From assembly GCA_030324005.1 (NCBI GenBank), contig JARDVH010000042.1, positions 74,936,116-75,000,003 on the forward strand: 63,888 nt of DNA, given 5' to 3'. Origin of the DNA: Negaprion brevirostris. Taxonomy: Eukaryota. Shown one piece after another: positions 732-58,039 of this stretch (its first letter is position 1; each line of letters opens with the position of its first letter). A model generated the notes under the pieces. The model saw only the letters and a list, made by a program, of their open reading frames with translations. It was not told the origin of the DNA and searched no databases. Both the position numbers and the translations under genes were made by a program.

Positions 732-911
732 GCCAATGAAATCATCAAAAAACTGCAGGGGGACATGAAAAAATTGATGGAAAAAATTAGACTGAAAAAT
801 ACTGTTACGATGCAACAAGAAAAGCTTCTAGGAGAAAAGACACAATTGCTCCAGAAGGAACAACAAGAATTAAAAGAAGTTCAACAGTCTCTAAAACAAA
901 AGGAAGAAGAG
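732..911 (+). CDS. SASS6: SAS-6 coding exon (coiled-coil), first exon visible in window
   Basis: atag|GCC...GAG|gtaat; 180 bp, phase 0/0; [60 protein letters not shown] matches recalled vertebrate SAS-6 ([13 protein letters not shown]...KLKNTVTIQQEKLL). Confidence 0.95.
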
Positions 912-1045
912 GTAATGAATCACAAATTATTATCTACATAAAGTGATTCTGAGTTTAGAAGTACTGGGGAAGGGGAAATAAGACAGTTGATTTGAAAATG
1001 AGTTTTGAAACTAAACAGCTGCCACTTTTTTAAAAATCTTTTTAG

Positions 1046-1127
1046 GTTTGTAAATTGCAAGAGCAGCTTGATGCCACAGTCGGAAAACTGGAAGAAAGCA
1101 AACAGCTTCTAAAGACAAACGAAAATG
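1046..1127 (+). CDS. SASS6: SAS-6 coding exon
   Basis: tttag|GTT...AAT G|gttagt; 82 bp; VCKLQEQLDATVGKLEESKQLLKTNEN. Confidence 0.95.
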
Positions 1128-2471
1128 GTTAGTAGTTGAAGCAAGAATGCTATAAAGCAGCCTGCATGTACACAGTATCTTTTAGCATTAATAAAATACA
1201 ACCAATAGTATTATTGGGCAAAATTTAACACGGAACCATATAAAGAATCTGTAGGACAGTTGACAAAAAACTTGGTCAAGCTGCTGATGTTTTTGTATGT
1301 GTAGAAATGAGACCGTGTGGTCGCTTTTGTGAGGCTGACGCCTCACACAGCCTAGCATTACAGGACTGAGAGGCAATGGGATTAATGTTTTACAATTATA
1401 TTGCCTTCATTAAGACTTGTGCAAAAACTATTAACCACTGAAGGCATTATTCACAGAAGATAAAAGAATGAATAAACTGAAGTAGGCAGAAGAACAGTAT
1501 TGAAGTATGGTAAATGTGTTGGCTGATAAACTATAGTGGAGCCTGTTTCAAAGGTAACCATGATGGACAATGTGGAAATAAATCACAGGGTGATCAACTG
1601 TCTGATTTTTCTGGGTTTGTCTCAGAATTTGGCTTCCTGTCCTTGTTACAGAGAAGCCTAGCTTATAATCGTTAGTTCTGCAAGTATTTGAATGTGACCC
1701 AAAAATGCTGGCATTTGTGGAAAGCTTCATTTTGAAAAGATTGAATAGAAGCTATGGCAGACATGCTAATATGACATCGTGTAGAAATATTTTGTGTTCT
1801 GATGTCCTTTACCAATTAGTACTGAAACTTTTTTCTGTGAGCTTCCTGAGTGCCATTTTTCCCCTGGATTTGTCAGGGCACAGTTGTACAGTCCAAAGCT
1901 AGCACTCTTCTCTTGAATTTTACAGCTTCAGCAGGTGGATGATAGGACTTGGGTGAGTTTGGGAGTGTCTCCCCACACCCCTCTGGTCTTGGCAAACCAT
2001 CTGCTCCTCTGGTGAAGTGTCCCTTATTTTCCTCCCTAGAGCTGGCCACCTATGGGTCATCCTAAGAAATTGTCTTTACTAACTTTTCAGTACACTGAGG
2101 TTTGTTGACAGCCAGCAATCAATGATGAATGAAATGATGCAGGGAAGCCTAGACTGTAATAATCAATTCTTTAAGTATTTGGATGTGACCTGGAAAGCGC
2201 TAGCTTTCCTGGGGAGCTTCATTTTAAGAAGAATTGAGAAGCTGTTAGCAGACATGTTAATATGACATTGTTTAGCAGTGTCTTGTGTACTTTGCCAGTT
2301 AATACTGAAACTAGTACCATTGTATTAATTCATTGAAAAGCACATGACTCCAAGCTCATCTTGACTGAAGTTTTTTTTACCATTCTGACATTTTTGGGAG
2401 GGGAAGAGAAACAAGCTCCATTATTTAACTTTTAAAACTGTTAATTGTATGCTACTATTTACCTTGCACAG

Positions 2472-2602
2472 TAATATCCTGGTTGAATAAACAACTGAAT
2501 GAAAATAAATTAGCAGCACTGCAAGAGACTCCAGGCTCTTTTGACCCATCAACAATATCTAGTGGCAATTTGTCCAGGCCTGGGGCTATGCAAAACAGTC
2601 TG
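2472..2602 (+). CDS. SASS6: SAS-6 coding exon (end of coiled-coil)
   Basis: cacag|TA ATA TCC TGG...CTG|gtaagt; 131 bp, phase 1/0; (V)ISWLNKQLNENKLAALQETPGSFDPSTISSGNLSRPGAMQNSL, cf. ITWLNKELNEN. Confidence 0.93.
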
Positions 2603-3996
2603 GTAAGTAAACTATTTACATTGTGACCAGAATTAAAACTTAGTTATTTTTATAATATCTAGTGAAGGTATGCGATGGAGAGCAGTAGTTTTTAATTGTT
2701 TATTGAAATGTTAGTACATTTTACTTTACCTTCATCTTCAATGGGACATCAATATTTATTGCTGTCCTGTTTTATAATGTGCAATGCAGGATTTTTGATT
2801 CCAGTTATATAAGTGTCAGTTTGGTTCAAGAGGAGCATTTTCATCTCCAAGTCAGTATATTTATTCAATGACCACACAGCAGAGGATGCAAAGACCCTTC
2901 TTTATTTGCCTGCTGATGTCCAGTGGTTTTTCACAGATGGATTACTGCCATCTGTAATAAGGAGAGGCACTTAAGTAGGCAGATAAAGACAATTTCCAAT
3001 CCTCTAACCTCATTTCCTATTGGTCACTGCAGGGTTGAGGGGATTACTCGCTGTGTAGGATGTCCAGAAAATGTCAGCTGAACCAGCTCCTGATGGGGGA
3101 TGGGCTTAGCAGCAAGCACTGCAGTTCAAAGGCCATCACTGTTTCTCTCCCTGCCCTCCTGAACACAAGCAATAATACTGGGTGTTTTCTGACAGCAGCC
3201 AGAAGTATGCAATGATGTCAGCCGTTGCTGCTCTTTCAGCTTGCAGACTTTATTTTTCATTTCCTGGTGCCTTTGCTGTGGGAGTATCTAGGAAATTTAA
3301 ATATAGAGCTCAGCAGCTCCGTGGATGTGTCAACTAGTTCACTGCCCGTCTCTCTAAAATATCTGTGAACAATATAGCGTTCGGCTGATTAACTTATGAA
3401 TACAGTTCAGTGGACTATGCAAAAATCTTGCTGGTAGGTTTGATCTCCAGTGGAGTCTGCACTCTCACATCCCTTGTCCATAATTCCAACACAGAACCTG
3501 TTAATGTAACATGGGGTAATCATCTTGCTGATGGAACTTATGACAGAGAGCAGTCTGAGTGCAATTGCTTAGATAAAAGAAAATCCACATTCAGTAAGAA
3601 CTTTGCCAAGCAGTTTAGCTGTGTGTTTGTTATTGAATTAACTCCAGTTAAATAGATCTTAAGTGGTCTTTTAAATTTGCCCCATCAGAAACCTGTCAGA
3701 TCTTTGAAAGCTCATTTTGTTGACGTTTTTGGAATTTGATTTGCCATTTTATTGGCAGAGAAAGGTTGAAGAGGCTCAGTGAAGGAAAAGTGACACAGGG
3801 CAAAAAAAGACAAATGGTTTCAGATTATTTTTCCAGTTTTCTGCATGCATGGCTGTTATACAGCAGTGGAGGATAGATCTGTGCTTTTGGATTGTGGAGA
3901 AATGTCTGTTTGCCCATTTTTTAACATAATTGGTGCAGACTTTTAAATAAAAGTCCTTGGAATATTAATATTGTTCTGTTGCTTTTTCTTTTGCAG

Positions 3997-4146
3997 CAAA
4001 CTTTGTTGCACCCTCCTTTTTCTGTCTTGATGCCACAGCCTGTCTCTTCTGCTTCGTCTTCAAATATTTATTCTCCGACCTCTGTTTCTACTATACGAAT
4101 GACTTCTCCATCCCTGAGGCCTGGTGTATCAGGACATGGTCTTCAG
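3997..4146 (+). CDS. SASS6: SAS-6 coding exon (disordered C-terminal region), probable GC donor
   Basis: strong polypyrimidine tract + ttgcag|CAA; 150 bp open, QTLLHPPFSVLMPQPVSSASSSNIYSPTSVSTIRMTSPSLRPGVSGHGLQ; the best phase-0 donor is CAG|gcaggc, so the 3' boundary is less certain. Confidence 0.7.
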
Positions 4147-4510
4147 GCAGGCTTGATTTTAAAATATATTATTTGTACTATTCTATTGTTTGGAGCGAAA
4201 TTAAATGTTTTAGAATTTGCTAGATTTTTAAACTCTGACTGAGTCGCACGTGTAAATTCAGGATTTTTGATATAAACCATATCAAACAGCTTTGCTGGTT
4301 ATCAGGAGGGCTTGTCATGATTATACACTTAAAATATTAAATGCTTGTACGTCTTAGCAGTAATTATTGCATGTTTGAAATTATTTCATAGATGCCTGTT
4401 TGTTTGAGGTTTGAATTGTTTATTAATTGTTCTGCAGTTTAAAAAAAATTGAACCAAAGTCACATTATTCAGTGAAAACTTGATATCTGACAAGAAAATG
4501 TTGCTCCTAG

Positions 4511-4617
4511 GTGCATTTCAGTCCTTTGCAACTAAACCCTAGCAGCATTCCTGCAACTGAATCCAAGTCGGGTCCTTCAGCTTCAACACCAACAGTAATG
4601 GCTGCCTCTTTGAAAAG
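4511..4617 (+). CDS. SASS6: SAS-6 coding exon
   Basis: cctag|GTG...AAA AG|gtatgc; 107 bp, phase 0/2; VHFSPLQLNPSSIPATESKSGPSASTPTVMAASLK (VHF cf. VQF). Confidence 0.8.
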
Positions 4618-5940
4618 GTATGCATTGGTTCCAGCAGCCTTAACAATGAATCAGAATAAATGTACTTTGTATTGGTCTAGTTTTCAGATGCCACAACCAG
4701 TCTTAAATATTTCCTGTTATATGCTGTTTAGATTTAGCTTTTTGATTATAAATTAGTTGAAATTTGTGAGATTGCATCCAATTGATGCAGACTATATTTT
4801 TGAGGTGTCTGAGATATGAATTTGTGATATTGAAATCCACTATTAAGCACTGGAACAGTAACTAGTTTAGGGTGCATTTTATAGCCACTGGAAAGCTTGA
4901 TGACAGGGAAGGTGAATAAGGATCACACTGTAAATAGCTCAGGTTTTTTCTCCCTGAAATGTATTGTCTGAAGTTTTTTTCTGTATGAATTGGAGTTAAT
5001 TCCTTCTCTGGTCTCTTATAACAGCTTTTCTTCACATCCTAAAGGCCATTTCAATGCTGCTCTAATCTACAATCTTCCCTCCCTCGTAACATACCATTAA
5101 ACAATTACCTAATCCTTTCACTATTGTCTCCTGACACCCGTACCTAAATTGAAAAATGTGTAATGGAAAGAGTGGCGGGCATGAACGTGCACCCAGCAAA
5201 TGCCTGACAGTTACCTTTTACACTCCTAGGCTGCATTAGAAACTTTTGGTCAGCAGCTCTTAATTCTTTCCATCGCCCCTCCAGTCTGCTTTCTTCTCAT
5301 CTCCCAGTTATCAGAAGGGAAGTTAGAGATGGATGTGCAAAGTAGGGGAGATTATTGTTTTCTTAAATTTCTGTTTCCTCTTTTTACTTTGATAGTATTT
5401 TATTTTGTGAACTAGAGAACCATTCCACCATTATTTTAAAATCACTTCCCCATAACTATATTCTTTTCTTTTGATTTTGCACTATAACTCTTGCATTCCG
5501 AAAAGGCTTTAACTTTTAGAACCTTTGCTAACTGAAACTTGTTTTCCACAAATGTGTAGATTGTCCCAATTTATTTCAATGTAATTACCTAAGATGTTGC
5601 TAGGCGTTAAAACCAAGAAATCTGGCTAACTTCCAGGTGTAATCTTAGCCTTCTGTAGATATGCTGGGGCCTGGAAGTAAACCCATTTATGAACTGATCT
5701 CGGTAGTGCATGCTGGAGTAGTTGCAGCTTAAATTTAAAATCTAAGTGTAAGTTCACTGATAGTGTGCTTCCAATACTGACAGAAATTCTACTCAGACTA
5801 CTGAATTTTATTCAGTGAAAAGTAAGGAAATTTGATCTCTCAATTATATGTTTTAAAGGGTAAGATACGTTTAATTGCAATACAGTTTTGTAAAATCAAA
5901 AAAATTGGCATTCAGAAGAGAACCTGATTCTGGGAGTTTC

Positions 5941-6130
5941 TTAGAATCACAGAATGCCCACAGTGCAGAAAGAGGCCATTTGGCAAATCAAGCCTGCACC
6001 AACAACAATCCCACCTAGGTCCATCCCCGTAACTCCATATATTTACCTTGCTACTCCCCCTGACGCCAAGAGGCAATTTAGCATGGCCAATCAACCTAGC
6101 CTGCATATCTTTGGAGTGTGGGAAGAAAGC
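5941..6130 (-). mobile_element. HE1/V-SINE 3' portion
   Basis: reverse complement matches the 3' half of the SINE at 13997-14317, including the CR1-like tail. Confidence 0.8.
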
Positions 6131-6988
6131 ACATGTATGTGGATGTCAGATGACATGATGAGGTCAAATATAATAACCCCATAATCAATATAGTAAAATC
6201 TAGACTCCTGTGTGATGAATGGACTCTTGAGGTACAGGGTGTTGCTCTTGAGAAAGCGTGGAAGAAAACTCGAAGACAGGAAGAAAAAGTATAACTACAT
6301 CCTAATATCAATTGATAAAAAGTAGAGAAAAAATGTCTTAGCTGCTCCTAAATCCCAGTGGAATGCATAAATAATTAAAGCCCTGATGGGAAGGCATATG
6401 AAGTAGATCTTATCTCGTATTCATGTTATCGAGCCTTTAACTTTTGTCTAGACTATAATGGAGCTTTTGGCTCCAACCAAGGAACATGTTTCTGAACTCG
6501 CTTGAGTAATGAAATATGGTTAGCGTGTATTCTGGGTTACTGAGTATGTTATTTGAAAATAAGTTACTTAGATTGATCTATAGGTTGTTTTCTTAATAGT
6601 TATGTAAGTTAAGCAACTTAATTTAATTTTTATTGTAAAACAGATGAAAAATTATGGAAGATTTGGCATTGGATTTAAGCTTGACTCATTGTAAAATTCT
6701 GTGTACCGGAACTATTGTGAGCTTATTTGCTAAAGTCACTGTTGGGAGATAACTAGTTGAAATCGAGGAAACAGTTTGTATTTAACTAGTTAGTTCAAAT
6801 TGGAATTGTTCCATTTTCAACTTTCAACAAGTCCAAAACTCTAATCTGTGTGATTTGTTGCAATGTAAATAGTAAAATAGAAGCTTTAAAAATTGAAATG
6901 TTTCAATTTCATGTTAACTCTTCATTATGTCTGTGGTTTGAACAATTCCATCAGCCATTTAATTAGAAATATTTCTTATTCTCTGTAG

Positions 6989-7095
6989 TGAACCAGTTGG
7001 CTTGGACCTGAAATACCTACAGAAGAGGGAAGGTGGTAAACCGATTTTATCTCGAGGGGCACCATTACAGAAGGCATCATGTCCATCTAGTGCAG
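6989..7095 (+). CDS. SASS6: SAS-6 coding exon
   Basis: tgtag|T GAA...GCA G|gtagt; 107 bp, phase 2/1; (S)EPVGLDLKYLQKREGGKPILSRGAPLQKASCPSSA, cf. ENVGLESKYLKKRE. Confidence 0.88.
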
Positions 7096-7494
7096 GTAGT
7101 AAAGTAGTTGTATTACGTCAAACCTCTGTATACATTATATTAGTTTTCATGCCTACATATGAAGAAAATTGTAATAGCTGGGAAGGTTAGGAATGTGTAA
7201 TTTATTATCTCCTAATATTTGCTTCAAAAAAATCAGCCCTTGAAAAAATCATATGGTACACTTTTAATTCAAAGTTTTTGATATAAATTACTTTCTTGCA
7301 AAAAACATTGAATTATCAGTAATACATTGTAATGAATAGATAAACTCCAACCAGGCTTTGACTTCTTTCTTACTGTTTCTTAGTATTGAACACAAAGTTA
7401 TAATGTCCATTATAATAATATGTACCATTAACAGTGCAATTTGTAAAATGCCTGCAAAAGAGTACAGATAAGGACTGTGAATAGAAAATATTGG

Positions 7495-7960
7495 AAATAC
7501 ATACTAGCATGAGTACAGCTCCAATAACACTTATGAAAGTTGACACAATCCATGATAAAGCAGCCCACTTGATCAGCACTCCCTTTATGACTGACACACT
7601 ATGGATGCAGTGTGTACCTTCTACAAGATGCAGTTCAGCACCTCAACAAAACTCCTTTAACAGCATCTTCCAAACCTGTGACCCTTACTATCTTCAGGAA
7701 CCAGGGATGCAGGTCTATACGAACACCATTAACTGCAAGTGCTCTCCACACATTATCCTGACTTGGTAATACATCGCCATTTTTTTGCTTGCTGCATTAA
7801 AATTCTGGGACTGTCTTATACTGCACATTTGGCCTAGAGACCTACACAACTCTACTGCAGCAGTCTAAAAAGGCTTAGTTAATACTGTCTTCTTGAGGAC
7901 AATAAGGGATGGACATTAAATGCAGTCCTTGTCAATGATACCCAGATGCCATGATTTTTT
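7495..7960 (+). mobile_element. LINE (CR1/L2 group) 3' end, decayed
   Basis: ends in caataagggatggacattaaatgcagtccttgtcaatgatacccagatgccatga, a tail shared with the SINE at 34737-35090. Confidence 0.6.
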
Positions 7961-9698
7961 TCTAAAAGCAGCCAAAGAGAGAAAACCAGAACTCTGCACA
8001 GATGATTCCTGAGTATTTCCAGCATTTTCTTTCTATTGCTGATTTTCAACATGCAAATAAGGGCCTGCAGTATATCCATAAATGCACCAAGACCTAAATA
8101 CAAGAGTAGTTCCAAATAGGGTGTGAGAGGAATTATACATGGTGATCCCTTCAGCTTTCTCTGCCTGTGGGGATCCTCTCAATGCATTTTCCTATCAGCT
8201 TGGCTGAGATTAGCCGAAATCAATATCATAACGTTTCATGGCATAGTGCATTAGGCTGACAGAGCTCAAAGCTTCTTTCAGTGCCTATCTTAATTTTCCT
8301 GCACCACCTACCCTTATGTTACAGGACCAAAATGTACACCTCTTCCTACTTCAATGACAAATAAGCCACTTAAAATCATAGATTCATAGGTGAATCCAGC
8401 TTAAACATAGAACAATACAGCACAGGAACAGGCCCTTCGGCCCATGATGTTGTACTGGACATGACGCCAAATTAAACAAATCCCTTTTGTTTGCCCTTGG
8501 TCTATATCTCTCTATTTCTGTGCTGTCGATATTCATGTGGTTATCTAAAAGCCCCTTAAGTAGCCCTAAAATTTTTTAAGGCTTTAAAGTTTATTTATTA
8601 CATTGGTTATTTGGAGAAAAAAAAAGTGGCTCCAGCAAGCCAATTATATTTTATGGGGTAAGAGAAATGTCCATAATTAGCTGGAGTTTTTCTTTTTGTC
8701 CAGTCCTAAGTCAAGTTCTGCTGACCTGTTTTTCTGTCCTTGGCATCTACATTTGTACACCATCCCTCCAATGCTTGTAATTTAAATCTTTGTCCTCAAC
8801 TTTAAATCCTCCAAGGTGTCATTCCTTTTAAACTATGTAATCTCAAACGTACGATCAGACCTTGGCACTTCGTGCATTCAGCTTTTCTCACTTACTTATT
8901 GGTAATAGAATCTTTAGTTATGTGAGTCTCTGTTCCTCATTCACTCTTTGTACCTTTTGGACAAAACACTTGGTCATCCAATTACCTCAAGTGTCCTAGC
9001 TAGTTACGAAACGCCTGCAACAGACAGACTCAGGTAAGATGCTAAGAAATTTCATGAATTTTCATTCAGATGTGGATAGGAGAAGGTCAGCAATTTCCCA
9101 CTACTGCCTGGCATGCCAGGTTGCAGGCATGTTTCCTCCAGGCTGTTTTGGAGCAGATTACATTAGAGGAGGGGATGATGACGACCCACTTGCAGGCAGA
9201 GGGTAGCTATTTAAGATAACTAAAGGGTGTTTAGGTTATGCTGAGGTCATAACCCGGCCATTGTGGAGGGGTCTCCCTCTACAACAACAGACAGACAGTT
9301 GTGGCTGCCTTTTACTATTTTCAAGATTCTTCAGAGGGTGCCCTTTTCAACTACCCACTTCTGCTAATGGGACTGTTGATCTCTCAGGGCTGGGGTCTCC
9401 TAATGTCCTCCAGCCTCAGGAATCTACTTTCCAACCATCCTTGATTGGATGAGGCTAAGTGGCCACCTCCTCAAAAATAGCCCTCTGGATTCTAACGATA
9501 ACATTTCTGGGTACCCGACCCCCACTTACTCCCAACAGCAGGAGTAGGACCCATAAATGAAAATGTAGCTGTTTGTGTTAATAACAATTTTTAAGGTAGG
9601 CTTTGGAAGTGAACAATTGATCATTTTAACCAACAAGTATAATTACTTTCTTCTGTCCTCTTTCTCCCCATCCCCATTGTTTTCTGATGTTTATTAAG

Positions 9699-9793
9699 TG
9701 CCAACACGTCCGCCTGTGCCAAAGCAAGGAAATCCGCCAACAGTGATTTCTGCCTACTTCCCTGGACAACAGCCTAGGCTCCCTGCATCATGA
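9699..9793 (+). CDS. SASS6: SAS-6 terminal coding exon
   Basis: ttaag|TG CCA...TCA TGA; phase 1 fits the previous exon; (V)PTRPPVPKQGNPPTVISAYFPGQQPRLPAS*, containing the conserved SAYFPGQ C-terminal motif. Confidence 0.9.
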
Positions 9794-11260
9794 AGAAAGA
9801 GCAGTAGCAAAACTTCTCAACATGGATCATAATCATGAAAGGAGAAAGGAAATTTCCCTTTAATAAAATAAAGAGGGGCCTCTAGAACACATCACTGCAA
9901 GTATTGCAGTGATACATTTAGACCGATTTGTCTTTTGTAAGAAATGACTAAACTGGGCAGTGATAATTACCATAAACCCAGGTGCTCATGCAAACTGCCA
10001 GAATACACTCTATTGCCATTTTCAGAATATTAACTTGCATACAAATACAAGCTTCATTTGAGGGAAGGTCTTCCGTACAGACCGCAGCGGTATACCAAAG
10101 TACATATGATAGAACCAGGAGTTTATATTTTGTGCCTTACAGATTACTACAATGGTGTAAATGATAATTTGAAGTAATCAAGATATGTGTATCAGGGCAC
10201 TAAATCTTGGGAATTTGATAAGTGAAGATCATTGGCTACCTTCTACATGAAGAAACTAAGGTTTTCTTCCCCCCTGCTTCCTCTTCCTCCTCCTCCCACA
10301 GCACGCACCCTTGAATATGTTCTTTTAAAATGAATGTTTCTGTAACTACAAATCTTTAGAGGATAAAACTCTCAGCATACTTTTTGAAGTTGATACACAT
10401 TGTTTTTTCCATTATGTTGTCAGCATTAGCAACATCTTTGGCACCACTCTTGTCTTTGGCATTTTTTTTGCTCAGCCTGTGCTATCTCAAAACTTATCTG
10501 GGATCACATGAATGGTATCTGTTGATTCTTAACAGGAGAGAGCAGTTTCTGTATGATCGACCATCTTAAACTAGTTGCAAACGCACTGTTGCCATTTTTG
10601 GCATCCGATTTATGACAATTATCTACAAACTGAAATCAGTTTGAGTTCAGTTTTCTTCAAACTCATATTGAAACCTTACTGTAATTCAGTATATACAGTC
10701 AGTATTACAATACAGGAATGGGTTGGCCCTGCCGAACACTGCAGGGAATACAGAATTGTTGATTAGCACTGGAGGGGTAAGGAGCAAGTTCTGTCTTGTT
10801 AGTAGGGCAGTAGTTATGTACTTTTTGTATCTGCAAAATAAATTTGATAGCTGCATAATAAGGAAATTAGAATCCATTTTGTTTAAAAATGCACCTCAAA
10901 AATATTAAGTGCCATTATTTATTATGCCCTATCAAATTATTTGTCTGAAAACATGAACTACTGCAATTTATCTCTGTAGTTCTGAATTCTATTACTTTGA
11001 TAAGGTGACTAATATAATTGCATCAGGGATTTTAAAGCACATCAGATGTACAGAACTGACATTACGTCCTCTATTGTGCTGTAACTAGTAATTTATGACC
11101 TCTGTTGAACTGAATATATGTCTGTGTAAAAATTGTAAAGAATTTTGTATTTAAAATGAGTGTTGTATACATATTTTGACTGAATAAAATATATGTACTT
11201 TTGCAGAAGAAACAGTGACCCTTCAATCTTTTAAAATAAAGTTGTTGCGATCTGCCATCT
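9794..11260 (+). other. SASS6: SAS-6 gene putative 3' UTR
   Basis: AT-rich, apparently TE-free stretch after the stop; AATAAA at 9862, about 10836, 11183 and 11235; true end unknown. Confidence 0.5.
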
Positions 11261-11437
11261 CCCAGCATAGCTGTAATGAGATGGGGAAGAAGACATGAAG
11301 GTTATTTTAAAATAAAATCATATACCATAAAGGAGAGCTTGTGTACTAGAGGAAGAATGACAATAATGCCAGTGGCCTTTTGTCATCCCTGGCTTTCCTT
11401 GTGTTTTCATGTTCTTCTTCCTGAGCTCTCACCCTTA

Positions 11438-11722
11438 CATAAGAACATAAGAAATAGGACCAGGAGTAGGCCATCTAGCCCTTCGAGCCTGCCCCGCCAT
11501 TCAATAAGATCATGGCTGATCTGTCGTGGCTNNNNNNNNNNNNNNNNNNNNNNNNNNNNNNNNNNNNNNNNNNNNNNNNNNNNNNNNNNNNNNNNNNNNN
11601 NNNNNNNNNNNNNNNNNNNNNNNNNNNNNNNAGAATTCCAGAGATTCACCACCCTTTGAGTGAAGAAGTTCCTCCTCAACTCCGTTCTAAACCGCCCCCC
11701 CTTTATCTCGAGGCTGTGCCCC
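11438..11722 (-). mobile_element. young CR1 LINE 3' end spanning a gap
   Basis: RGHSLEIKGGRFRTELRRNFFTQRVVNLWNS C-terminus plus (ttcttatg) tail. Confidence 0.85.
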
Positions 11723-12760: not shown

Positions 12761-13996
12761 ATTGTGATAGTCTTCAGTGACTTTTAATTTACATACGGAT
12801 TAGATTCATCAGACAGGCAAGGATAGTCTGGAGGATCAGGTCATTGAATATTTTCGGTACAATTCCTTAAGAGTTCTGCAGCCAACTAGAGAGCAGGCTA
12901 TTCTAAATCTGGAAACAAGATTCATTAATGACTTCGTAATAAAGGTAGCAGCGATCATATCATGGTTACATTTTTCTTTTGGTTTGAGGGAAAGAAAAAA
13001 GAGCCTAAGACCAATATTTTAAACTTATAGAAGGGTAATTATGAAGGTATGAAGGCAGAACTAGCTAAAGTGACCTGGAAAATTACAAGGGACAGGTCAG
13101 TGCAGATGCAGTGGCAGAAATTTAAGATTGTTCATGTTACTCAGCGAAATAAGAGAGCAAGACTCAAGGGGAAGGATGGACTGGTTGTGGCCAATTAAGA
13201 AAGTTAATGATAGTATCAGTTAGAAATAAAAAAAAGCATAGTGGCAGGTCAGAAAATTTAATAAAATATAAACACAGCGAAGAATGACTTGAATAGTGAC
13301 AGAGAAATTGTAAGGAAAAAGCTGACTAAAAAGAGTTTCTGCAGATTCTTAAAAACAAAAACAAAGGAAGTGCATGTTGGTCCTCTGGAGAGAGAGCTGG
13401 TAAATTAATAATGGAAAATAAATGACAGATGACTTGGACAGATATTTTGCATCTGTCTTCGCTATAGAGGATCATATAACATCACAGAAACAATTGAATC
13501 AAGAGGTGAAAGGGAGGAAACTTGAAATGATGATGATCATCAGGAAAATGTCTTTTAAGAAAATCATTAGAGCAAAAAATTGTCAAGATCCAGATCCTGA
13601 ATGACTTAATTCTAGAACTAGGTGCTGTGATGGTGCTTGCATTGGATTTAATTTTCCAAAACTTCCTTGATTCTGGAAATATCCCATCGGAGTGGAAAAT
13701 ATTCAAGAAAGGAGGGAGACAGTAAGCAGAAAACTATAGGCCAGCTGGCTTAACATTTTTCATAAGGAAAATGCTGGAATCTATTATTAAGGAGATTATG
13801 ACTGGGCACTTGGAAAATCACAATGTAATTAGGCAAAGTCAACAAGGTTTTGTGAAAGGAAAATTGTGTTTGACTAATTTATTAGAATTATTGGAGGAAG
13901 TAATTAACAATGTGAACAAAGGGGGGCCTATGAATATGGTGCACTTAGATTTCCAAAAGGCATTTGACAAAATGCTCATATAAAGATTATTACACA

Positions 13997-33434: not shown

Positions 33435-33644
33435 TCACACACTGCTGTCCTGCAACAGTGGCTCATTGTCCTCGTCACTGCTAATGGGTGGAGTAGTGGG
33501 ATTGATACCAAGACTGCTGCTATGCTTCCTTGCAGTACTGGCTTTACCAGAGATGCCATGTTCAGGAATAAATAAGGCAACCAAAAAAGCTACCAGGACT
33601 GTAATGGCTCCAAACAAGAAAGGTGGTCCAGGGATAATGGAATC
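33435..33644 (-). CDS. MFSD14B: MFSD14-family terminal coding exon
   Basis: gtttag|GAT...GTG TGA; 210 bp; DSIIPGPPFLFGAITVLVAFLVALFIPEH...SDEDNEPLLQDSSV*, with an acidic dileucine-type motif in the tail. Confidence 0.93.
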   Translation of the reverse strand, partial: DSIIPGPPFLFGAITVLVAFLVALFIPEHGISGKASTARKHSSSLGINPTTPPISSDEDNEPLLQDSSV

Positions 33645-33977: not shown

Positions 33978-34123
33978 CTCCATTTTGGAATTTTGTACAT
34001 TGACCTTCTTGCCAGGGATTGCATCCAGCTCCACATGAAACATGTAGAAAATAAAACCATATAGAGCAGGTCCAAGGCCATTGCACAACCCTCTGATTCC
34101 TGTGATCATTCCTTGCACAACAC
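33978..34123 (-). CDS. MFSD14B: MFSD14-family penultimate exon
   Basis: ttttag|GT GTT...GAG|gtaagt; 146 bp; (G)VVQGMITGIRGLCNGLGPALYGFIFYMFHVELDAIPGKKVNVQNSKME. Confidence 0.94.
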
Positions 34124-35759: not shown

Positions 35760-37885
35760 AGGCAACAGACCATGTTAGACATGGAATTGTAAACTGAGAC
35801 AGGATCTTGAAGTAATCTTCAAGGATCTCAATAATCTTGAAGTAAACAAGCCTCTAGGGAAGAGTAATCTAATGAACAATTTATATTGAGTTTGAGTGAT
35901 TTAATTGAGTTTGAAACTAGGGTCTTAAATTTTACTAAAAAAATACACGAGGAGCAAGTTGGCTAAGATAAACTGTGAAAATGTAAACAGATAATTCATA
36001 ATTATTCATTTTCATCAGAAATAAAAACTTAATGGAGAATAGGTCTAACCTTTGGCACATAAAAAGTATGAGATTAAAGGATAAACTTTGGTAATATTGC
36101 CAAAAAAGCAAGCCTGAGAATTGGGATGATTTTAAAATTTAGCAAAAATGACCAAAAAGTTAATAAGGAAAATAGGATGCGGGTAAATGAACAGGAGACA
36201 TAAAACAGTTTATAAAGGTTATGTAGGTATGCAAATGAGAGTCTGACAGACAAAAGAGAAATTATTGTAGGGAGTAAAAAAATGGCAGAGATTTATATTA
36301 AACAAATACTTCGTATTGGTCTTCAGGAAATTCTGGAAGCAGTGCAAGTTCTAATGAAAATAAGGAACTTAAAGTAGAACTAGAAATAGAACTGCACTGA
36401 GAAATTGATGGGATTAAAAGCCAACAACTTCCTTAGATCAGAATGCTTACAACCTAGGGTTTTAAAATAAGTGGCTATAGAAGTAATGGATGGATTTAGC
36501 TTTGACCTTTGTGAATCTTGTGGATTCTAGAATGGTTCCTCACAGATCTTGAGGGGAATTGCTTGATAGAGCAGACACAGCACGGTTTCGTTAAGGGGAA
36601 GTCGTGTCTGACAAANNNNNNNNNNNNNNNNNNNNNNNNNNNNNNNNNNNNNNNNNNNNNNNNNNNNNNNNNNNNNNNNNNNNNNNNNNNNNNNNNNNNN
36701 NNNNNNNNNNNNNNNGATCTTATTGAATGGTGGGGCAGGCTCGAAGGGCTAGATGGCCTACTCCTGCTCCTATTTCTTATGTTCTTATAAGACAACAGTA
36801 AAGGTAACCAATTATTCAAGAAAGGAAGAGGACAAAATAACAAGGAACTGTGGGTTATTTTGATATCATTTGCAGGGAACATGCATTAAAATTGTGTGCA
36901 TGCTGCAACTGCCATATTAGCTCTCAAAAGAACTACTGTGGCACTCAAAAAATGAGCACAACTGATCCCCATTTCATGATGACAGATTGAAATGACAGAA
37001 ATGTAGCTTTCTGTCAAGGACAGAATTGAAAATGAAAAGTACAATGATGATCTAAAAAGGGGAATGCTTGGGGAAACACGAGTTTATGGGAACAATGGTT
37101 TATGTTAATATAAAAGGGAATTCAAAAGCTTTTGGTTTTAAACACAAACGGGTAGTCAAAGAAGGTTGGTTCCAATTAGGGATCAGAAGGGAGGTCTTTA
37201 GGAGGCAGAGGCCATGGCTGTTAATGAGTAATTCGCACCTGCCTTTACTAGAAAACAGGATGCTTCCAATGTAGCTTTTAAGAAAGAGACAGTAACAATA
37301 TTGCATAGAATAGAAAAAGAGTTACTTAAAAGGTTGATAGCCCTCAGTCATCTCTCTGGATGTGACGCATCGTCAGCTAGGTAGGGAAGCAAAGGTGAAG
37401 TTGGTAAATGATCAAAATCATCAATTATTTTGATAGTTTCTCTTTTTTTTTAAACTGTTTGTTAGGAAGGTCAATCACCAGATGACAAAGGTTTAAGACG
37501 ACTGGCAGAAGAACCATAAAATTCTAACAGGATTGTGCAGGGTAGATTCAGAAAGAACGTTCTCAGTGGTGGGGAGTCCAGAACCAGGTGTCATTGTTTG
37601 AGGATAAGTGATAAAGCTTTTAAGACTGAAGTGAGGATAAATTTTTTCACCCAGAGAATGATGAATCTGTGGAATTCACTACCACAGAAAGCAGCTGAGG
37701 CCAAAACAGTGTGATTTCAAGATGAAATTAGTTATAGCTCTTGGGCCTAAAGAGATCAAAAGATATTGGGCGGGGGAGGGGCAGGAGAAGAATATTCAAC
37801 GCGACCAGTCATGATCAAAGTAAATAGCAGAGCAGGCTCAAAGGTCCGAATGGCCTACTTCTGCTTCTATTTTCTATGTTTTTAT
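35760..37885 (+). mobile_element. cluster of decayed CR1 fragments with a nested young CR1 end (about 36548-36788)
   Basis: QHGFVKGKSCLT; 3' ends tttttcacccagagaatgatgaatctgtggaattcactaccacag; ttctatg tails. Confidence 0.75.
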
Positions 37886-40168: not shown

Positions 40169-40465
40169 TAAGAACATAAGAAATAGGAGCAGGAGTAGGC
40201 CATCTAGCCCTTCGAGCCTGCCCCGCCATTCAATAAGATCANNNNNNNNNNNNNNNNNNNNNNNNNNNNNNNNNNNNNNNNNNNNNNNNNNNNNNNNNNN
40301 NNNNNNNNNNNNNNNNNNNNNNNNNNNNNNNNNNNNNNNNNGAGCACCGAAAAAGATCTCCTTAAAGATCCTCCACTGTTCCTCAGCAGTCCTACCGACC
40401 AATCTGCGCCCCCAATCTGCATTTGCCAATTCCTCTCTCATCCTATCGTACTCCCCTCTGTTCAG
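40169..40465 (-). mobile_element. young CR1 LINE (collapsed in gap)
   Basis: 3' tail left of the gap; ORF2 piece GEYDRMREELANADW...EEQWRIFKE right of the gap. Confidence 0.8.
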
Positions 40466-41715: not shown

Positions 41716-41813
41716 CCTGTTGATCAGGATCTGCATTTCTTGAAACCAGAGCACTCACTGCTGGAAACGTAATACTGGACATTGCTGCTACAGCTCCTGC
41801 TGCCCACATCATC
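41716..41813 (-). CDS. MFSD14B: MFSD14-family exon
   Basis: cttag|G ATG...CAG G|gtgagt; 98 bp; MMWAAGAVAAMSSITFPAVSALVSRNADPDQQ. Confidence 0.94.
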
Positions 41814-42407: not shown

Positions 42408-42520
42408 CAGGGCTGGGATCCAAAGCCATACCAAGCTAACTGCGACATCTGAAATCCAAGGCCTAGGAGAACGGTGTTCTTATTACCTATGGACCTCATT
42501 AGGATACTAAGAAATACAGT
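42408..42520 (-). CDS. MFSD14B: MFSD14-family exon
   Basis: cacag|ACT...CCC TG|gtaagc; 113 bp; TVFLSILMRSIGNKNTVLLGLGFQMSQLAWYGFGSQP(W). Confidence 0.93.
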
Positions 42521-45042: not shown

Positions 45043-45232
45043 GTGGAGGCTACCTCGCTAAATATATTTAAGACACGGGTAGATAGGTTTTTGATAGGCA
45101 AAGGAATTAAGGGTTATGGGGAGAAAGCGGGAAAGTGGAACTGATCCACTTCAGATCAGCTATGATCTTACTGAATGGTGGGGCAGGCTGGAAGGGCTAG
45201 ATGGCCTACTCCTGCTCCTATTTCTTATGTCT
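45043..45232 (+). mobile_element. young CR1 3' end
   Basis: gaatggtggggcaggctggaagggctagatggcctactcctgctcctatttcttatg tail. Confidence 0.8.
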
Positions 45233-47043
45233 TATCTCTGTTGCCTCCCGAAAATACATAAGACAAACACACCCGTCCCATCGTATGGGACCCATGCGAG
45301 AACCTCTCCGGCTACATCGAAACCCATTGTACAAAGAACCCCCTAGCTTTTGTTGCGACATTACAGACTTCCTACAGAAAGTCAGCACACATGGAGCTGT
45401 TGAACCAGGAGCACTCCTCATCACAAAGGATGTCACGGCACTCTACAACCAGCACCCCCCACGACGATGGCATTGCTGCAATTGCTTCAGTCCTCAACAC
45501 TGACAACTGCCGGTTTCCAGATGCAATTTTACAACTCATCCGTTTCATCCTGGACCACAATGTCTTCACCTTCAACAACCAGTTCTTCATCCAGACACAC
45601 CGAACAGCCATGGGAACCAAATTCATACCATCTTCATGCACAGGTACCTCTTCACTGCACAGAACCTTCAACCAATCAACACACTAGATACATCGATGAC
45701 ATTTTCTTCGTTTGGACTCATGGTGAACAATCACTGAAACAATTATATGATGACATCAACAAGTTCCATCCCACCATCAGACTCATCATGGACTACTCTC
45801 TGGAATCAGTTGCGTCCTTGGACACACGCATCTCCATCAAGGACGGTCCCCTCAACACTTCACTGTACCGTAAGCCCACGGATAACCTCACGATGCTCCA
45901 CTTCTCCAACTTCCACCCTAAACATGTTAAAGAAGCCATCACCTACAGACAAGTCCTCCGTATACACAGGATCTGCACAGATGAGGAGGATCGCAACAGA
46001 ATCTCCAGGCATTGAACGATGTCCTCATAAGAACAGAATATGATGCTTGACTCATCAATTGACAGTTCCGACACACCACAGTGAAAAACCGCACCAACCT
46101 CCTCAGAAGACAAACACGGGACATGGTGAACAGAGTATCCTTTGTCATCTAGTACTTCCCCGGGAGGAGAAACTATGACATCTTCTTCGGAGCCTTCAAC
46201 ATGTCATTGATGAAGATGAACATCTCGCCAAGGCCCCTCTACTTGCTTTCAACAACCACACACCCTCAAGCAGACATTGTTGGCAGCAAACTACCCACCC
46301 TTCAGGAGAATAGCGACACCACACAACCCTGCCACAGCAACCTCTGCAAGACGTACCAGATCATCAACACGGATGCCACCATCTCAGGTGAGAACACCAT
46401 CCACCAGCTACACGGTACAACATTGTCTATTTGATATTCTGCAGGAAAGAATGGCAAGACCATGTAGATGCTATGACAACGGATGAATGGACACCATTTG
46501 ACAATCATCAGCCAGAAGTGTTGCCTTCCTGTCGGAGAACACTTCAGAGTCAAAGGCATTCAGCCTCCAATCTTCAGGTAAGCGTTCTCCAAGGCAGCGT
46601 TCAAGACACATGACAACACAGAATTGCCAAGCACAAACTGATAGCCAAGTTCTGCACACATGAGGACAGCCTCAACCGGGATCTTAGGTTCATGCCACAC
46701 TGCCTGTAATCCTCACGACTTGCCTGGGCTTGCAAAATCTCACTAACTGTCCTGGCTTGAGGCAATTCACACCCCTTTAACCTGTGCTTAATTCTTACTC
46801 CACTCGCATTGTCTGTACCTGTAAAGACTTGATTACCTGTTAAGACTTGTATTCTAACCATTATCTTGCAATTGAGTCTGTGTCTATACATGCCCTGTTT
46901 GTGAACCAAATCCTGCACTCACCTGATGAAGGAGCAGTGCTCTGAACGCTCGTGCTACCAAATAAACTTGTTGGACTTTCACCTGATGTTGTGAGACTTC
47001 TTACTGTACCCAGCCCTGTCCAACACCAGCATTTCTACATCAT
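45233..47043 (+). mobile_element. Penelope-like retroelement (5'-truncated RT + GIY-YIG remnant + 3' terminal repeat with hammerhead)
   Basis: CLPKIHK, DVTALY, HNVFTFNNQFFIQTHRTAMGT, RYIDDIFFVWTHG (YIDD at 45689-45700), LYRKPTD; IVYLI.C GIY-like motif near 46420; many frameshifts. Confidence 0.92.
46920..46954 (+). ncRNA. minimal type-I hammerhead ribozyme motif (PLE family 1), core mutated
   Basis: CAC CUGAUGA A GGAGC-agu-GCUCU GAAc GCUC GUG; helix I CAC/GUG; GAAA changed to GAAC. Confidence 0.65.
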
Positions 47044-47798: not shown

Positions 47799-47898
47799 NN
47801 NNNNNNNNNNNNNNNNNNNNNNNNNNNNNNNNNNNNNNNNNNNNNNNNNNNNNNNNNNNNNNNNNNNNNNNNNNNNNNNNNNNNNNNNNNNNNNNNNN

Positions 47899-49773: not shown

Positions 49774-49845
49774 CTGTGCTATTATAGAGAGGATTCCCAC
49801 CACAGCTATAAAGGCTGCTAGGTTCCCAGCAGAAAAGTCGATAAC
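49774..49845 (-). CDS. MFSD14B: MFSD14-family exon
   Basis: catag|GTT...CAG|gtgagt; 72 bp; VIDFSAGNLAAFIAVVGILSIIAQ. Confidence 0.92.
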
Positions 49846-50848: not shown

Positions 50849-50929
50849 ACTCTATAAACTCTATAACTACTCTCAGTACACTGGATTCCAGTAAGAGTGG
50901 TGGCAGCAAGAAGAAATAATAGAGAATTA

Positions 50930-53900
50930 AGACATAAGAACACAGGATTAGGAGAATTAGGCCATTCTGCCCCTCCAGTCTGCTCCATCTTTCAATTACA
51001 TTACAGCTGATCTTATTTTGGCCTCCACACCACCATCCTGTCCACCCCATAGCCTATAATCTTTTGTTTATCAAAAGTCTACTTTAGCTTTGAATGTATT
51101 CAATGATTCGGCCTCAAAAGCTTTCCAGGTCTCAACCTACAATGGGAGACTCTTAATTTTTAAACAGTGTCTCCTAGTTGTCATCTTCTCCAAATGCATA
51201 AAACATCTGCCCAGGAGCAACCCTGCTGAGTCCTCTCAAACGTTTTCTATTTCATCAAGGTTACCTCTTATTCTTCTAAGCTCCAATTGGCATAACCCCA
51301 CTCGTTCAACCTTTCCTCAAAAGATAATCAGTGGAATCATCCGAGTGAAACTTACCTGCACTGCTTCTAGTGCAATTACATCCTTTAAGTAAGTAGACCA
51401 AAACTGTACACAGTACTCCAAATGTGGCCACTCCAAAGCCCTCTACAGCGACAGCAAGACTTTCAGACTGTTACACTTGATTCCATTTGTAATATAGGTC
51501 AACATTCCATTTGCCTTCCTCATTACTTGCTGTACCTGCATATCAACTGTGCGAATCCTATATCAGGACACTCAGATCCCTCTGAACATCAGAGTACTGC
51601 AGTCTCACTCCATCCAAGTAACATACTGCTTTTCTATTCCTCCTGCCAAAGTAGATAAGTTTACATTTTTCCACATTATACTCCAACTGCCAAATGTTTG
51701 CTCACTCACTTAACCTAGCTAAATCCCTTTTGCAAATTACTTTCCTATCTATCATTGTGCCATTAGCAATGTAGCTACCATATATTCAATCCCTTCATCC
51801 ATAGATTGTAAATAGTTGAGGCCCAAGTACCGATCTTTGTGTTATTCCACTAACAGCAGCTTGATAACTTGAAAATGATCCATTTATTCCTACTCTATCC
51901 TTCCTGTTAACTAACCAATTAGTTATCCATGCTAATGCGTTGCCCATAATATCTTACTTTGTGTGGTAACCTTTGAAATGACACTTTGTTAATCCTCTCT
52001 TGGAAATCCAAATACAGCACCACCAGAGTTTCCCTTGATCAATGCTGCTTGTTACTTCCGTAAAGAACTCAAGTAAACTTGTCAGATATGATTTCCCTTC
52101 CACAAAATCATGCTGACTCTGCCTGACTGAATTGTAATTTTCTAAATTTCCCACTATTACCTCCCTTAATAATGGATTCTAGTATTTTCCTTATTGTTTT
52201 GGAAGATTACAACCAATGTATCTATTAAATCTTATCTACTTCTTTTAAGACCCTAGGATGAAAGCCATTAAGGGTATGTCAAACTTCTTTTCTAATTGTT
52301 TTTCTGGTACCTTTTCCTTAGTGAATGTTTTAAGCTCCACCGCTTTTATCTCTGGGGTTTTTTTTAAAGGTATTCTTGGGATGTTTATGTCTTCTACGGT
52401 GAAAATGAAAAAAAAAAAGCCTTATTTTCACCATTTCCTACTTCCTATTATTAATTCTCATCGTCTAAGGGAGGGTCACTTTAATTACTTTTCCTTTTTA
52501 AATACTTGCAGAAACTCTTAGTAGCTTTCTCTTATGCTGTAATTTCTCCCTCCTTATTTTTAGTCATTTAGCTTAAAGTCCTTTCTACTACCCTTATATG
52601 ACTTGCCAGAAACTCTTCCAGCATATTTAAACTGAAGATCGTCCCAATGGTGCAGAGTTTTTTGAAGGGGTAACCAAGAAGGTAGATGAGGACAGTGCAG
52701 TTGATGCTGTCCACGTGGATATTAGCAAGGCCTTTGACAAGGTACCACATGGTAGGTTGTTGCACAAGGTTGAATCTCAAGGGATCCAGAGTGAGGTAGC
52801 TAAATGGATACAGAATTGGCTTGCTGACAGAAGCCAGAGGATGGTTGTAGAGGGTTGTTTTTCAAACTGGAAGCCTGTGACCAGCGGTGTGCCTCAGGGA
52901 TTGATGCTGGGTCCATTGTTATTTATCATTTATATTAATGATTTGGATGAGAATATAGGAGGCATGGTTAGTAAGTTTGCAGATGACACCAAGNNNNNNN
53001 NNNNNNNNNNNNNNNNNNNNNNNNNNNNNNNNNNNNNNNNNNNNNNNNNNNNNNNNNNNNNNNNNNNNNNNNNNNNNNNNNNNNNNNNNNNNNAATTACC
53101 TGCTGCACCTGCGAACCAGCTTTTGGTGACTCGTGCACAAGGACACCCAGATCCCTCTGCACAGCAGCATGCTGCAGTTCTTTACCATTTAAACAATAGT
53201 CCATTTTGCTGTTATTCGTACTAAAATGGATGACCTCACATTTATCAACATTGCACTCCATCTGCCAGATCCTTGCCCACTCACTTAGGCTATCTCCCTT
53301 TGCAGACTTTCGACATCCTCTGCACACTTTGCACTGCCACTCATTTTGGTGTCATCTGCGAATTTTGACACACTACACTTGGTTTCCAACTACAAATCAG
53401 CTATGTAAATCGTAAACAGTTACGATCCCGACACTGATCCCTGAGGCACACCACTAGTCACTGAAAACCAGAAAAACACCCATTAACCCCCACTCTTTGC
53501 TTCCTGTTAGTTAACCAATCCTCTATCCGTGCTAATACATTATCCGTAACACTGTGCACCTTTATCTTAAGCAGCAGCCTTTAGTGCGGCACCTTGTCAA
53601 ATGCCTTCTGGAAATCCAGATACACCACATTCACGGGTTCCCCACTGTCCATCGTACACATAATGTTCTCAAAGAATTCCACCAAATTAGTCAAACATGA
53701 CCTGCCCTTCATGAACCAATGCTGTGTCTTCCCAACGGGATAATTTATATCCAGATGCTTCACTATTTCTTCCTTGATGATAGATTCAAGCATTTTCCCA
53801 ATGCTTGAGTAATCCAAGATTACTTTGAAAGTCCTCCACTGTTCCTCAACTCACCATAAAGTTTTTGCTCACTCCTCCCTCATCCCATTGTAGTCTCCTT

Positions 53901-55774: not shown

Positions 55775-56393
55775 TCCCTTTCCCCCCACCCCCCTTACTG
55801 ATGCCAGTACATTTTTCCCACCCTAATTTTTGACTCATGCATTCAGCCCTCTAATCTCATTTATCCTGTACCAATTTATTTGTGTTCAGGGAGTAATTCA
55901 GAGATCATCTTTAAGGCTCTGCTTTTTGATTCAAGTCATCCAGGATTCCCCTCCTGATCAATATTCTGCTACAAGAAGATGCACCTGTGGTTAACACTGA
56001 AGAAAACTCAGCTGTGACCATCACCCAAAGCCAGATGATCTGCTGATAGTTAAACCTCAAATAAGTATTGGTTACTTGAGCAAGATATCACAGTCAATTG
56101 GTGCCTGTAGAACTACATGCCTGCAAATGATAAAGATCTTCAAAGGAGCAGTGGTGAGAAAACTGGCATAGAGAAAAGAAGTTTCCTTCTAGAAATCATG
56201 TTTAATTTAAAAGCTAAAAGAATTTATTTATATAACTGCTAGCCTTTTATGAGGCTATAATGTGCTCCATAAAATCAGTGTTCAGCCCATATTCTGTTTT
56301 ACAATTGATTAATAACCTTGCTGGCCAACAAAATAACAATTCTGAGAATGTGCTAGACCGCAAAAACTGCTGTGGGAAAAGTGGCAGACACAC

Positions 56394-56507
56394 CTGTTTA
56401 AGATAAAGGAAAAAGCTAGAGTACTGTCCAGCCTCAGGCAGGTATGAAAGAAATACAGTTATACAGATGAGCAGCACAGTGGTGTCCTTCCCAACCTTCT
56501 TCAAGGA
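56394..56507 (-). CDS. MFSD14B: MFSD14-family exon
   Basis: cag|TCC...CAG|gtgtgt; 114 bp; SLKKVGKDTTVLLICITVFLSYLPEAGQYSSFFLYLKQ. Confidence 0.93.
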
Positions 56508-57267
56508 CTGTAACAAAAGAAAAGAAATGCTCACTTACAAATGTTATCAACTTTAAGTTACTTATTCACATCATATGGTATAACAGATCAGAAACACACC
56601 TAGAATGGTTGATCCAGCATCTTGGATTTAATGGCACTGCACAAAACAGCATAAATATAAAGCAATGCAGCTATAAATTAATAGGATTGGTGGAAAAATA
56701 ATGACTGGGACTATCAGTTACCTTGAAATTCCTGAAGATAAACAGGGATGGAGTATAGATTCTTGAAGTAATTGTGCACTTGTTACAGCTTTTGATAGGC
56801 CACAGCTGGCTCAGAGCCTCCCATTTAAAGCTGCAACCCGCCTCTGAGTCAGATTGTCTCCTTGCCCAAATCCTAGCTTCAATTAAGACCATAAATGGGT
56901 CATTTGGGCAATGAATAAGCAGATGGGGATGTTGGATAAAGCAGTCTATTCTATGCTTGAAGGTTTTATATAGCTGATACAAACAAAAGTGGTAAAAGCT
57001 GCTTTTAAAACAAACATTTGTGTACTGAGCTTTAGCATGTAGCAGGATTTTGTTTTAACAACTTGTTCATAACATTGCTTCTAATACTAAATTCTGTAGC
57101 AGCCTGCTCAATTACTGATGGTCAAAAAACAAAATGCAACAAAGTTCAGACTTGCTCAACTACTGCATACGTGAAAGATAAAATTCTGCCTCAGTGTCAT
57201 AATACAGGCATCAGCGAATGTACAACATTGTCACATAAAATCTGTACATTCAAGAGTTACTGAATAA

Positions 57268-57740
57268 ACAGCTTGTACTTGCATAGTGCCTTTAACATAG
57301 TTAACCTTCCTAAGGTGTTTGGCTGGAGCATTACAAAGCAAAATTTTGACACTAAGCCCCATGAAGAGATATTACGGCAAGCAATCAAAAGCTTGGTTAA
57401 AAGCATGTTTTGAAGAAGCAGAGAGAGGAGGGGAGAGACGAGGGGAGAAATTCCAGAACTTAAGGCCCTGGCAGCTGAAGGCACAGCTTGCCAGCACACA
57501 TGGTGGAGTGAATAAAATTGGGGACACGCAAGAGGCCAGAGTTGGAGAAGTGCGGATTTCTCACAGGGTTAATGAGCTGGAGAAGAACACAGACAGCAAG
57601 ACCACAGAGGAATTTGAAAACAAGCATATGAATTTTAAAATCCCGCCACCATTTAACCAAAGGCCTGTGCAGGTTAATGAGCACAAAAGTAATAGGTGAA
57701 CAGGACCTGGTGCAAGCTAAGACATACATAGCATTTTTTA
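57268..57740 (-). mobile_element. L2-type LINE 3' end, decayed
   Basis: antisense tail tatgttaaaggcactatgcaagtacaagctg; similar relic at about 33680-33890. Confidence 0.55.
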
Positions 57741-57820
57741 AATATGTAGGTATGGTTTATTCAACAACAAATCCTGCATTCTGGTAATTATAGTCCAAAT
57801 ACAGATTATTGAATGCTTAC

Positions 57821-58039
57821 AGAAAAAGGGTCCGCTTGCTCCCAAGAGAAAGGTGATCCCCGCGAAGCTGGTCGAACCTTCTCAGGAAGAGATTCTGGCA
57901 CAGCTACTAAGATAAAGCAGATGTCCAATGCTGCAATCACAGTGGCTACAAGGACCACAAGGTTATCACCATATTTACTTGAAAGATAAGCACCAATGGC
58001 TGGACTGGTTACCAAGCTTGCTGCAAATGTTGCTGACAC
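57821..58039 (-). CDS. MFSD14B: MFSD14/HIAT1-family MFS transporter exon (most 5' exon found in window)
   Basis: tag|GTG...TCT|gtaagc; 219 bp; VSATFAASLVTSPAIGAYLSSKYGDNLVVLVATVIAALDICFILVAVPESLPEKVRPASRGSPFSWEQADPFS. Family is secure; A versus B paralog call is tentative. Confidence 0.92.

Follow-up and report, generated by a model that had tools for sequence, protein, structure and literature searches.

Known SAS-6 and MFSD14 genes

SAS-6 forms the scaffold that underlies the ninefold symmetry of centrioles: it oligomerises head to head, carries a coiled-coil spoke and builds the ninefold cartwheel. The gene is usually treated as dosage-sensitive and single-copy, with one-to-one orthologues. 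CEP63/DEUP1 and CDC20/CDC20B are likewise vertebrate duplicates of centriole regulators. Mammals retain both members of these two pairs, and the members have distinct roles, whereas mammalian SAS-6 shows only one lineage, here termed A. The deuterosome pathway is served by deup1 and not by its paralogue cep63, according to an excerpt of PMC4083089. We analysed 63,888 nt of Negaprion brevirostris DNA (contig JARDVH010000042.1, positions 74,936,116 to 75,000,003; this whole stretch is called the window), in which a SAS-6 gene converges on an MFSD14 transporter gene. With a probability of about 85%, this SAS-6 represents a second jawed-vertebrate lineage (B) lying tail to tail with MFSD14B, the pair likely being the sister block of mammalian MFSD14A-SASS6 and a likely product of early vertebrate whole-genome duplication.

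Human, mouse, chicken and teleost SASS6, all of lineage A, share family, domains and length with the window gene. Amniote A proteins are 68–73% identical to its coiled-coil exon at 732–911 and 47–49% identical to the whole part within the window. The human gene order, which we take to be SLC35A3-MFSD14A-SASS6-TRMT13, would give SASS6 the same tail-to-tail layout with an MFSD14 gene. Teleost synteny blocks list cdc14ab, dbt, rtca, lrrc39, trmt13, sass6 and hiat1b (Fig. 5 legend, PMC8389408), which, as far as a legend can indicate, agrees with that layout. The window gene differs in belonging to a separate clade, in its tail ending and in its neighbour, MFSD14B, where A-lineage genes stand beside MFSD14A or hiat1b and TRMT13.

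The Swiss-Prot entry for Xenopus laevis SAS-6 (Q6NRG6) falls in clade B, and its contig has the same length (233,740,091) as that of X. laevis HIATL1; it is an orthologue of the window gene. It is named 'SAS-6 homolog', with nothing to set it apart as paralogous to mammalian SASS6.

Hidden paralogy by differential ohnolog loss is a known pattern, with one apparent copy per species, conflict between gene tree and species tree, and sister synteny blocks. The SAS-6 case stands out in that it affects the core cartwheel protein and in that both copies would have reached the ancestors of archosaurs and of turtles. Judged by titles and the starts of abstracts, no paper listed in literature searches describes two vertebrate SAS-6 lineages, or SAS-6 as an instance of this pattern; gene trees at Ensembl, Xenbase and ZFIN may already encode the split. 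For the neighbouring gene, MFSD14B/HIATL1, an atypical solute carrier of the major facilitator type, no notable difference was found: the window transporter clusters with this gene and carries residues diagnostic of it. In mouse, MFSD14B co-localises with an endoplasmic reticulum marker (excerpt of PMC5263138).

Two SAS-6 clades in jawed vertebrates

Searching with the coiled-coil exon of the window SAS-6 gave 357 matches at E ≤ 1e-3, of which the best 120 were listed. Nearly all of these 120 bore SAS-6 names or SAS-6 Pfam domains, and by these matches the window part is homologous to the coiled coil and C-terminal tail of SAS-6. Removal of six unnamed rows left 114 named ones. These sorted by taxon without mixing: 62 fell in A, including all birds, squamates and mammals, and 52 in B, none of them from those groups.

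In a tree of 65 rows, mammals, birds and squamates were separated from sharks, paddlefish, coelacanth, amphibians, turtles and crocodilians. The split was supported at 100/100 under a site-mixture model and recurred in further SAS-6 trees. Rows for an outgroup tree were added from 50%-cluster representatives (amphioxus, crinoid, coral, Ciona, hagfish, lampreys, teleosts, bowfin and a partial Pelodiscus sequence). Clades A and B were recovered at 100/100 and 100/99, respectively, each broadly following the species tree. Clade A comprised teleosts, mammals, squamates, birds and the softshell turtle Pelodiscus (one record, K7G361, on a short branch). Clade B comprised chondrichthyans (sharks, rays and chimaera) with the window gene, paddlefish and bowfin, coelacanth, amphibians, crocodilians and the other turtles (Emydura, Mauremys and Caretta). 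The window SAS-6 fails to group with mammalian SASS6 as the species tree would require.

Identities followed the same division. Alligator SAS-6 is 64.7% identical to that of catshark and 55.2% to that of chicken. The window part is 56–59% identical to B-type proteins of Xenopus, alligator and turtle and 46.6–48.7% to A-type proteins of amniotes, in keeping with the divergent C-terminal exons that a sequence-only reading of the window had pointed out. The vertebrate SAS-6 clade was supported at 99/97, and the occurrence of B in sharks and A in bony fishes places the duplication before the jawed-vertebrate radiation and after the divergence of invertebrate chordates. The two clades are older than the split between sharks and bony fishes.

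Two clades might also arise as an artefact of rate or composition in a single orthologous SAS-6 that had moved between MFSD14 paralogues. The window row and the lamprey rows do fail the composition test, and databases name both kinds identically. Such an artefact is at odds with the short to moderate branches within both clades, with the full support under the site-mixture model, with the presence of turtles on both sides and with clade-specific residues distributed along the protein. A and B differ most in the tail. Approximately unbiased tests rejected SAS-6 monophyly for archosaurs (p = 1.9e-38), turtles (p = 1.4e-4), ray-finned fishes (p = 7.5e-15) and bony vertebrates (p = 4.2e-6), the groups being those of the species tree, selected with the first trees already in view. 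The gene would also have to have moved repeatedly to one and the same paralogous neighbour. The single-gene explanation is thus very improbable and largely refuted, and the A/B paralogy is near certain.

Two side observations concern clade A. Protein P0332, a gapped, fast-evolving A-type SAS-6, sits on a long branch as sister to amniote A (87/87), and may be a non-amniote A copy, either decaying or mis-predicted. The turtle A record matched only generic coiled-coil clusters in the ESM Atlas, which was uninformative.

Linkage with MFSD14B

B-type SAS-6 travels with MFSD14B. The two lie on contigs of identical size in 23 of 26 species (12 chondrichthyans, paddlefish, five amphibians and five turtles), as against none of five chromosome-scale cases for A-type SAS-6, where identical size denotes the same chromosome and not adjacency, and the species are non-independent. 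Species with scaffold-level or different-assembly records were excluded. The linkage recurs from chimaera to turtles, and in two Scyliorhinus species, Mustelus and Cetorhinus the RefSeq accessions of SAS-6 and MFSD14B are consecutive or near-consecutive. For one neighbour, MFSD14, duplication along with SAS-6 onto different chromosomes was found: skate and chimaera carry a second, A-like MFSD14, and in the skate Rhinoraja this gene lies on a 32.8-Mb contig, while the window-type MFSD14 and SAS-6 share a 101.4-Mb contig.

The sequence-only reading had described a convergent SAS-6 and MFSD14 pair, and both genes are present as described. Its proposal of a sister block holding a second SAS-6 ohnolog is supported by the clade apart from mammalian SASS6 and by the recurrent B-MFSD14B linkage, with whole-genome duplication as the likely cause. 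True paralogues would also result if, in the jawed-vertebrate stem, a small block holding MFSD14 and SAS-6 had undergone segmental duplication, and only two linked genes were tested; the position of cyclostomes outside A and B in the best trees fits any duplication after the cyclostome split. The location of the copies on different chromosomes and an age matching the first and second rounds of vertebrate genome duplication (1R and 2R) speak for the larger event, as do the other paralogue pairs, such as CDC14A/CDC14B, that human 1p21 and 9q22 presumably share. We consider a segmental origin unlikely. The adjacency of SAS-6 and the transporter likely reflects inherited synteny and not a functional link.

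Identity of the transporter

A tree of the window MFSD14 with 55 matches of its last exon followed the species tree. An A-like clade of 24 rows (chimaera, skate, sturgeon, and teleost 'MFSD14A2' or HIAT1) stood apart at 100/100 from the B rows and the window. The window transporter grouped with the MFSD14B/HIATL1 rows and away from the A-like clade in this unrooted tree, as its earlier description as MFSD14B-like had anticipated. The neighbour of the window SAS-6 is thus a B-type MFSD14 and not of the MFSD14A type, in a set from which mammalian MFSD14A is absent. NCBI mostly names the shark transporter 'HIAT1-like', a name that the tree contradicts.

Fourteen diagnostic columns distinguish 17 A-like rows from 23 B rows of bony vertebrates. 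At ten of them the window carries the B residue, at one the A residue and at three neither. The B-type motifs cited in the sequence-only reading are present; its description of them as mixed with A-type residues was overstated.

These data bear on whether the shark transporter might be distinct from both A and B of mammals, as a third MFSD14 paralogue in a third sister block. The tree is unrooted, the 'HIAT1-like' name is prevalent, an 'MFSD14A2' label exists in fishes, and the window protein is about as similar to an A-like shark protein (78–79%) as to cat and alligator B (77–79%). Against this, the diagnostic residues are predominantly B, and the SAS-6 next to the transporter clusters with that of amphibians and turtles, where HIATL1 lies on the same chromosome as SAS-6. 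If the tree is rooted on the A-like branch, moreover, it follows the species tree with zero extra losses. A third paralogue is therefore highly improbable, and MFSD14B is retained as the likely identity of the transporter.

Naming in this family calls for some care. No named amniote MFSD14A was found, and a PDB search returned MFSD10 only; an Aquila record named HIAT1, tried as amniote MFSD14A, was rejected when it proved by tree to be MFSD14B. In one published tree, chicken MFSD14B clustered nearer human MFSD14A (excerpt of PMC5627054), which indicates that the A and B names are not stable beyond mammals. The A-like clade (P0511, P0422, P0451 and P0516), labelled MFSD14A2 in fishes and located on a small contig in skate, may represent a third ohnolog, separate from the MFSD14A of mammals. 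Paddlefish has two MFSD14B copies (P0150 and P0163) on contigs of 110.7 and 109.1 Mb, with SAS-6 seen on the 109.1-Mb contig only; they would fit the paddlefish-specific duplication. An Acipenser sinensis model (P0419) fuses a RhoGAP domain to MFSD14 sequence. It is likely a merged gene model, which hints at a RhoGAP neighbour.

Proposed origin and losses of the two copies

We propose that the two blocks arose by duplication of an ancestral tail-to-tail MFSD14-SAS-6 pair, with 1R or 2R as the most likely occasion, and that both SAS-6 copies would have been present in the jawed-vertebrate ancestor. On the standard species tree, both would still have been together in the ancestors of neopterygian fishes, because bowfin has B and teleosts A; of archosaurs, because crocodilians have B and birds A; and of turtles, because Pelodiscus has A while Emydura and other cryptodires have B. 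B would later have been lost in mammals, birds and squamates and probably in teleosts. The loss in the first three groups is supported by the B-type query, which returned no B sequence among their 62 rows. The earlier suggestion of a second SAS-6 lost in mammals agrees with this pattern, whose extent is wider than was guessed: B occurs in amphibians, coelacanth, paddlefish, bowfin, turtles and crocodilians, and A, as in mammals, in birds, squamates and teleosts.

Several points weigh against this account. Both copies were seen together in no single genome, among SAS-6 matches reaching down to about 70–73% identity; A copies in B-bearing lineages would escape at that level, because the turtle A sequence matches the query exon at 41 of 60 residues (68%). 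No shark or crocodilian A copy was found among the 50%-cluster representatives. At 11 diagnostic SAS-6 columns the window carries six B residues and three that are neither, together with two A residues. Three of the 26 species in the linkage tally are mismatches: Ascaphus is clear, and Caretta and Lepidochelys olivacea differ by <0.3 Mb, with records spanning several assemblies. The tally is further subject to the reading of contig size given above. Timing relative to cyclostomes is weakly supported, with cyclostomes outside A and B in the best trees at 92/85, 80/70 and 74; neither their joining to A (p = 0.24) nor to B (p = 0.09) was rejected, a result compatible with either 1R or 2R. In the MFSD14 tree, which is unrooted and contains no MFSD14A named as such from mammals or birds, the shark clade is placed between the A-like and bony-vertebrate B clades (100/97), and that tree taken alone would be compatible with a root that pairs the shark clade with the A-like clade as sisters.

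Predicted function and implications

Named shark SAS-6 orthologues, whose C-terminal regions are 86–96% identical to the window part, carry the N-terminal head domain PF16531, which in the window gene would be encoded upstream of the window. Full-length shark B proteins have both SAS-6 Pfam domains and align with solved SAS-6 heads at E = 3.6e-65, and the head loop is conserved in full-length B relatives. Given these features, B is taken as a working cartwheel protein, and SAS-6 B is likely an ordinary cartwheel scaffold.

By its place in clade B, the SAS-6 catalogued for Xenopus, sharks, coelacanth, crocodilians and most of the turtles sampled is paralogous to the gene of mammals, birds and teleosts. 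Cross-species comparisons of centrioles, especially those involving Xenopus multiciliated cells, are affected, as is the use of SASS6 as a single-copy marker in phylogenomics. Long co-retention followed by repeated loss would raise the question of whether the copies were redundant, dosage-balanced, or specialised like CEP63/DEUP1. It is conceivable, though doubtful, that the two ohnologs were kept together for hundreds of millions of years for different jobs, for example centriole duplication in the cell cycle versus mass production of basal bodies or sperm centrioles. In that event both might still be expressed in living turtles, crocodilians and perhaps amphibians and sharks; mammals, birds, squamates and teleosts would each have returned to A; and Xenopus SAS-6 would not be the orthologue of the human microcephaly gene. 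A functional split between A and B is speculative.

Gene layout and other features of the window

The window is AT-rich, with assembly gaps amounting to 2,013 N. SAS-6 occupies 732–9793 (+ strand) and MFSD14 58039–33435 (− strand), 23.6 kb apart from stop to stop. Each gene has its last seven coding exons inside the window and its 5′ half beyond the window edge, which places the outer flanking genes outside the window as well. In a splice-aware reading, the SAS-6 part encodes 283 aa in one open frame, with all acceptors AG, donors five GT and one GC, and a stop codon at 9791–9793; the MFSD14 part encodes 323 aa plus stop, with every junction GT-AG. The closest named proteins among the matches listed are Mustelus asterias models (SAS-6 271/283, MFSD14 317/323; about 96–98%). 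The features, with their basis in brackets, are as follows.

732–911, +, SAS-6 (B lineage) coding exon of 60 codons, coiled coil (best matches chondrichthyan SAS-6, 85–95%)
1046–1127, +, SAS-6 coding exon, end of coiled coil (splice-aware reading, alignment)
2472–2602, +, SAS-6 coding exon, start of low-complexity tail (splice-aware reading, alignment)
3997–4146, +, SAS-6 frame-preserving exon of 150 nt, GC donor after 4146, likely a cassette exon (splice-aware reading, isoform models)
4511–4617, +, SAS-6 coding exon (splice-aware reading, alignment)
6989–7095, +, SAS-6 coding exon (splice-aware reading, alignment)
9699–9793, +, SAS-6 last coding exon and stop, with the C-terminal extension typical of the B lineage (splice-aware reading, sequence comparison)
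9794–33434, no strand, intergenic: 3′ untranslated regions (UTRs), repeats and assembly gaps (Pfam, Rfam)
33435–33644, −, MFSD14B last coding exon and stop (top non-shark matches listed mostly named HIATL1/MF14B)
33978–34123, −, MFSD14B coding exon (splice-aware reading, tree alignment)
41716–41813, −, MFSD14B coding exon (splice-aware reading, tree alignment)
42408–42520, −, MFSD14B coding exon (splice-aware reading, tree alignment)
49774–49845, −, MFSD14B coding exon (splice-aware reading)
56394–56507, −, MFSD14B coding exon (splice-aware reading)
57821–58039, −, MFSD14B coding exon, first inside the window (splice-aware reading; weak Pfam MFS_1 match, E = 0.0018, below the curated cut-off)

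Pfam searches of single exons matched none of the seven SAS-6 exons and one of the seven MFSD14 exons, the weak MFS_1 match above, and a PDB search with exon 732–911 gave chance coiled-coil matches only. Pfam revealed no third gene between SAS-6 and MFSD14B in any of the 61 stop-free frames of at least 70 aa in 9794–33434, a search that short exons escape; two reverse-transcriptase fragments were the only matches. No further gene was detected by Pfam in 80 of the 166 long frames of the window (including all 61 intergenic ones), Rfam gave zero matches across the window, and visual inspection of 58040–63888 revealed no upstream MFSD14 exon.

SAS-6 exon 3997–4146 occurs in Mustelus and Rhincodon models. 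Other isoform models from sharks do without it, and in the B records of coelacanth, axolotl and bowfin it is wholly or mostly missing. Comparison of these models points to likely alternative splicing of the tail. In MFSD14, codon 42445–42443 (−) reads Ser, where the aligned MFSD14 proteins have Leu (cat Phe) in a predicted membrane segment; it may be a variant or a base-call error. Candidate polyadenylation hexamers for SAS-6 were located at 9862, 10837 and 11183–11311. On the MFSD14B side, several AATAAA/ATTAAA hexamers in 30750–33434 (−), the farthest at about 30751, point to a long 3′ UTR that may reach about 2.7 kb.

Repeats account for the remaining observations. Between 45200 and 46900 lie several long frames, four of which were tested against Pfam with zero matches; the region presumably resembles a decayed Penelope-type retroelement. 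Pfam RVT_1 fragments, from decayed elements like long interspersed nuclear elements, were found at 13726–13980, 29016–29258, 52631–52993 (+) and 53584–53850 (−). A young interspersed repeat family with 80–99% identity occurs at 11440–11512, 29555–29629, 36714–36788, 40169–40241, 45162–45236 and 60253–60327. Several of its copies adjoin N gaps and are the likely cause of those assembly breaks.

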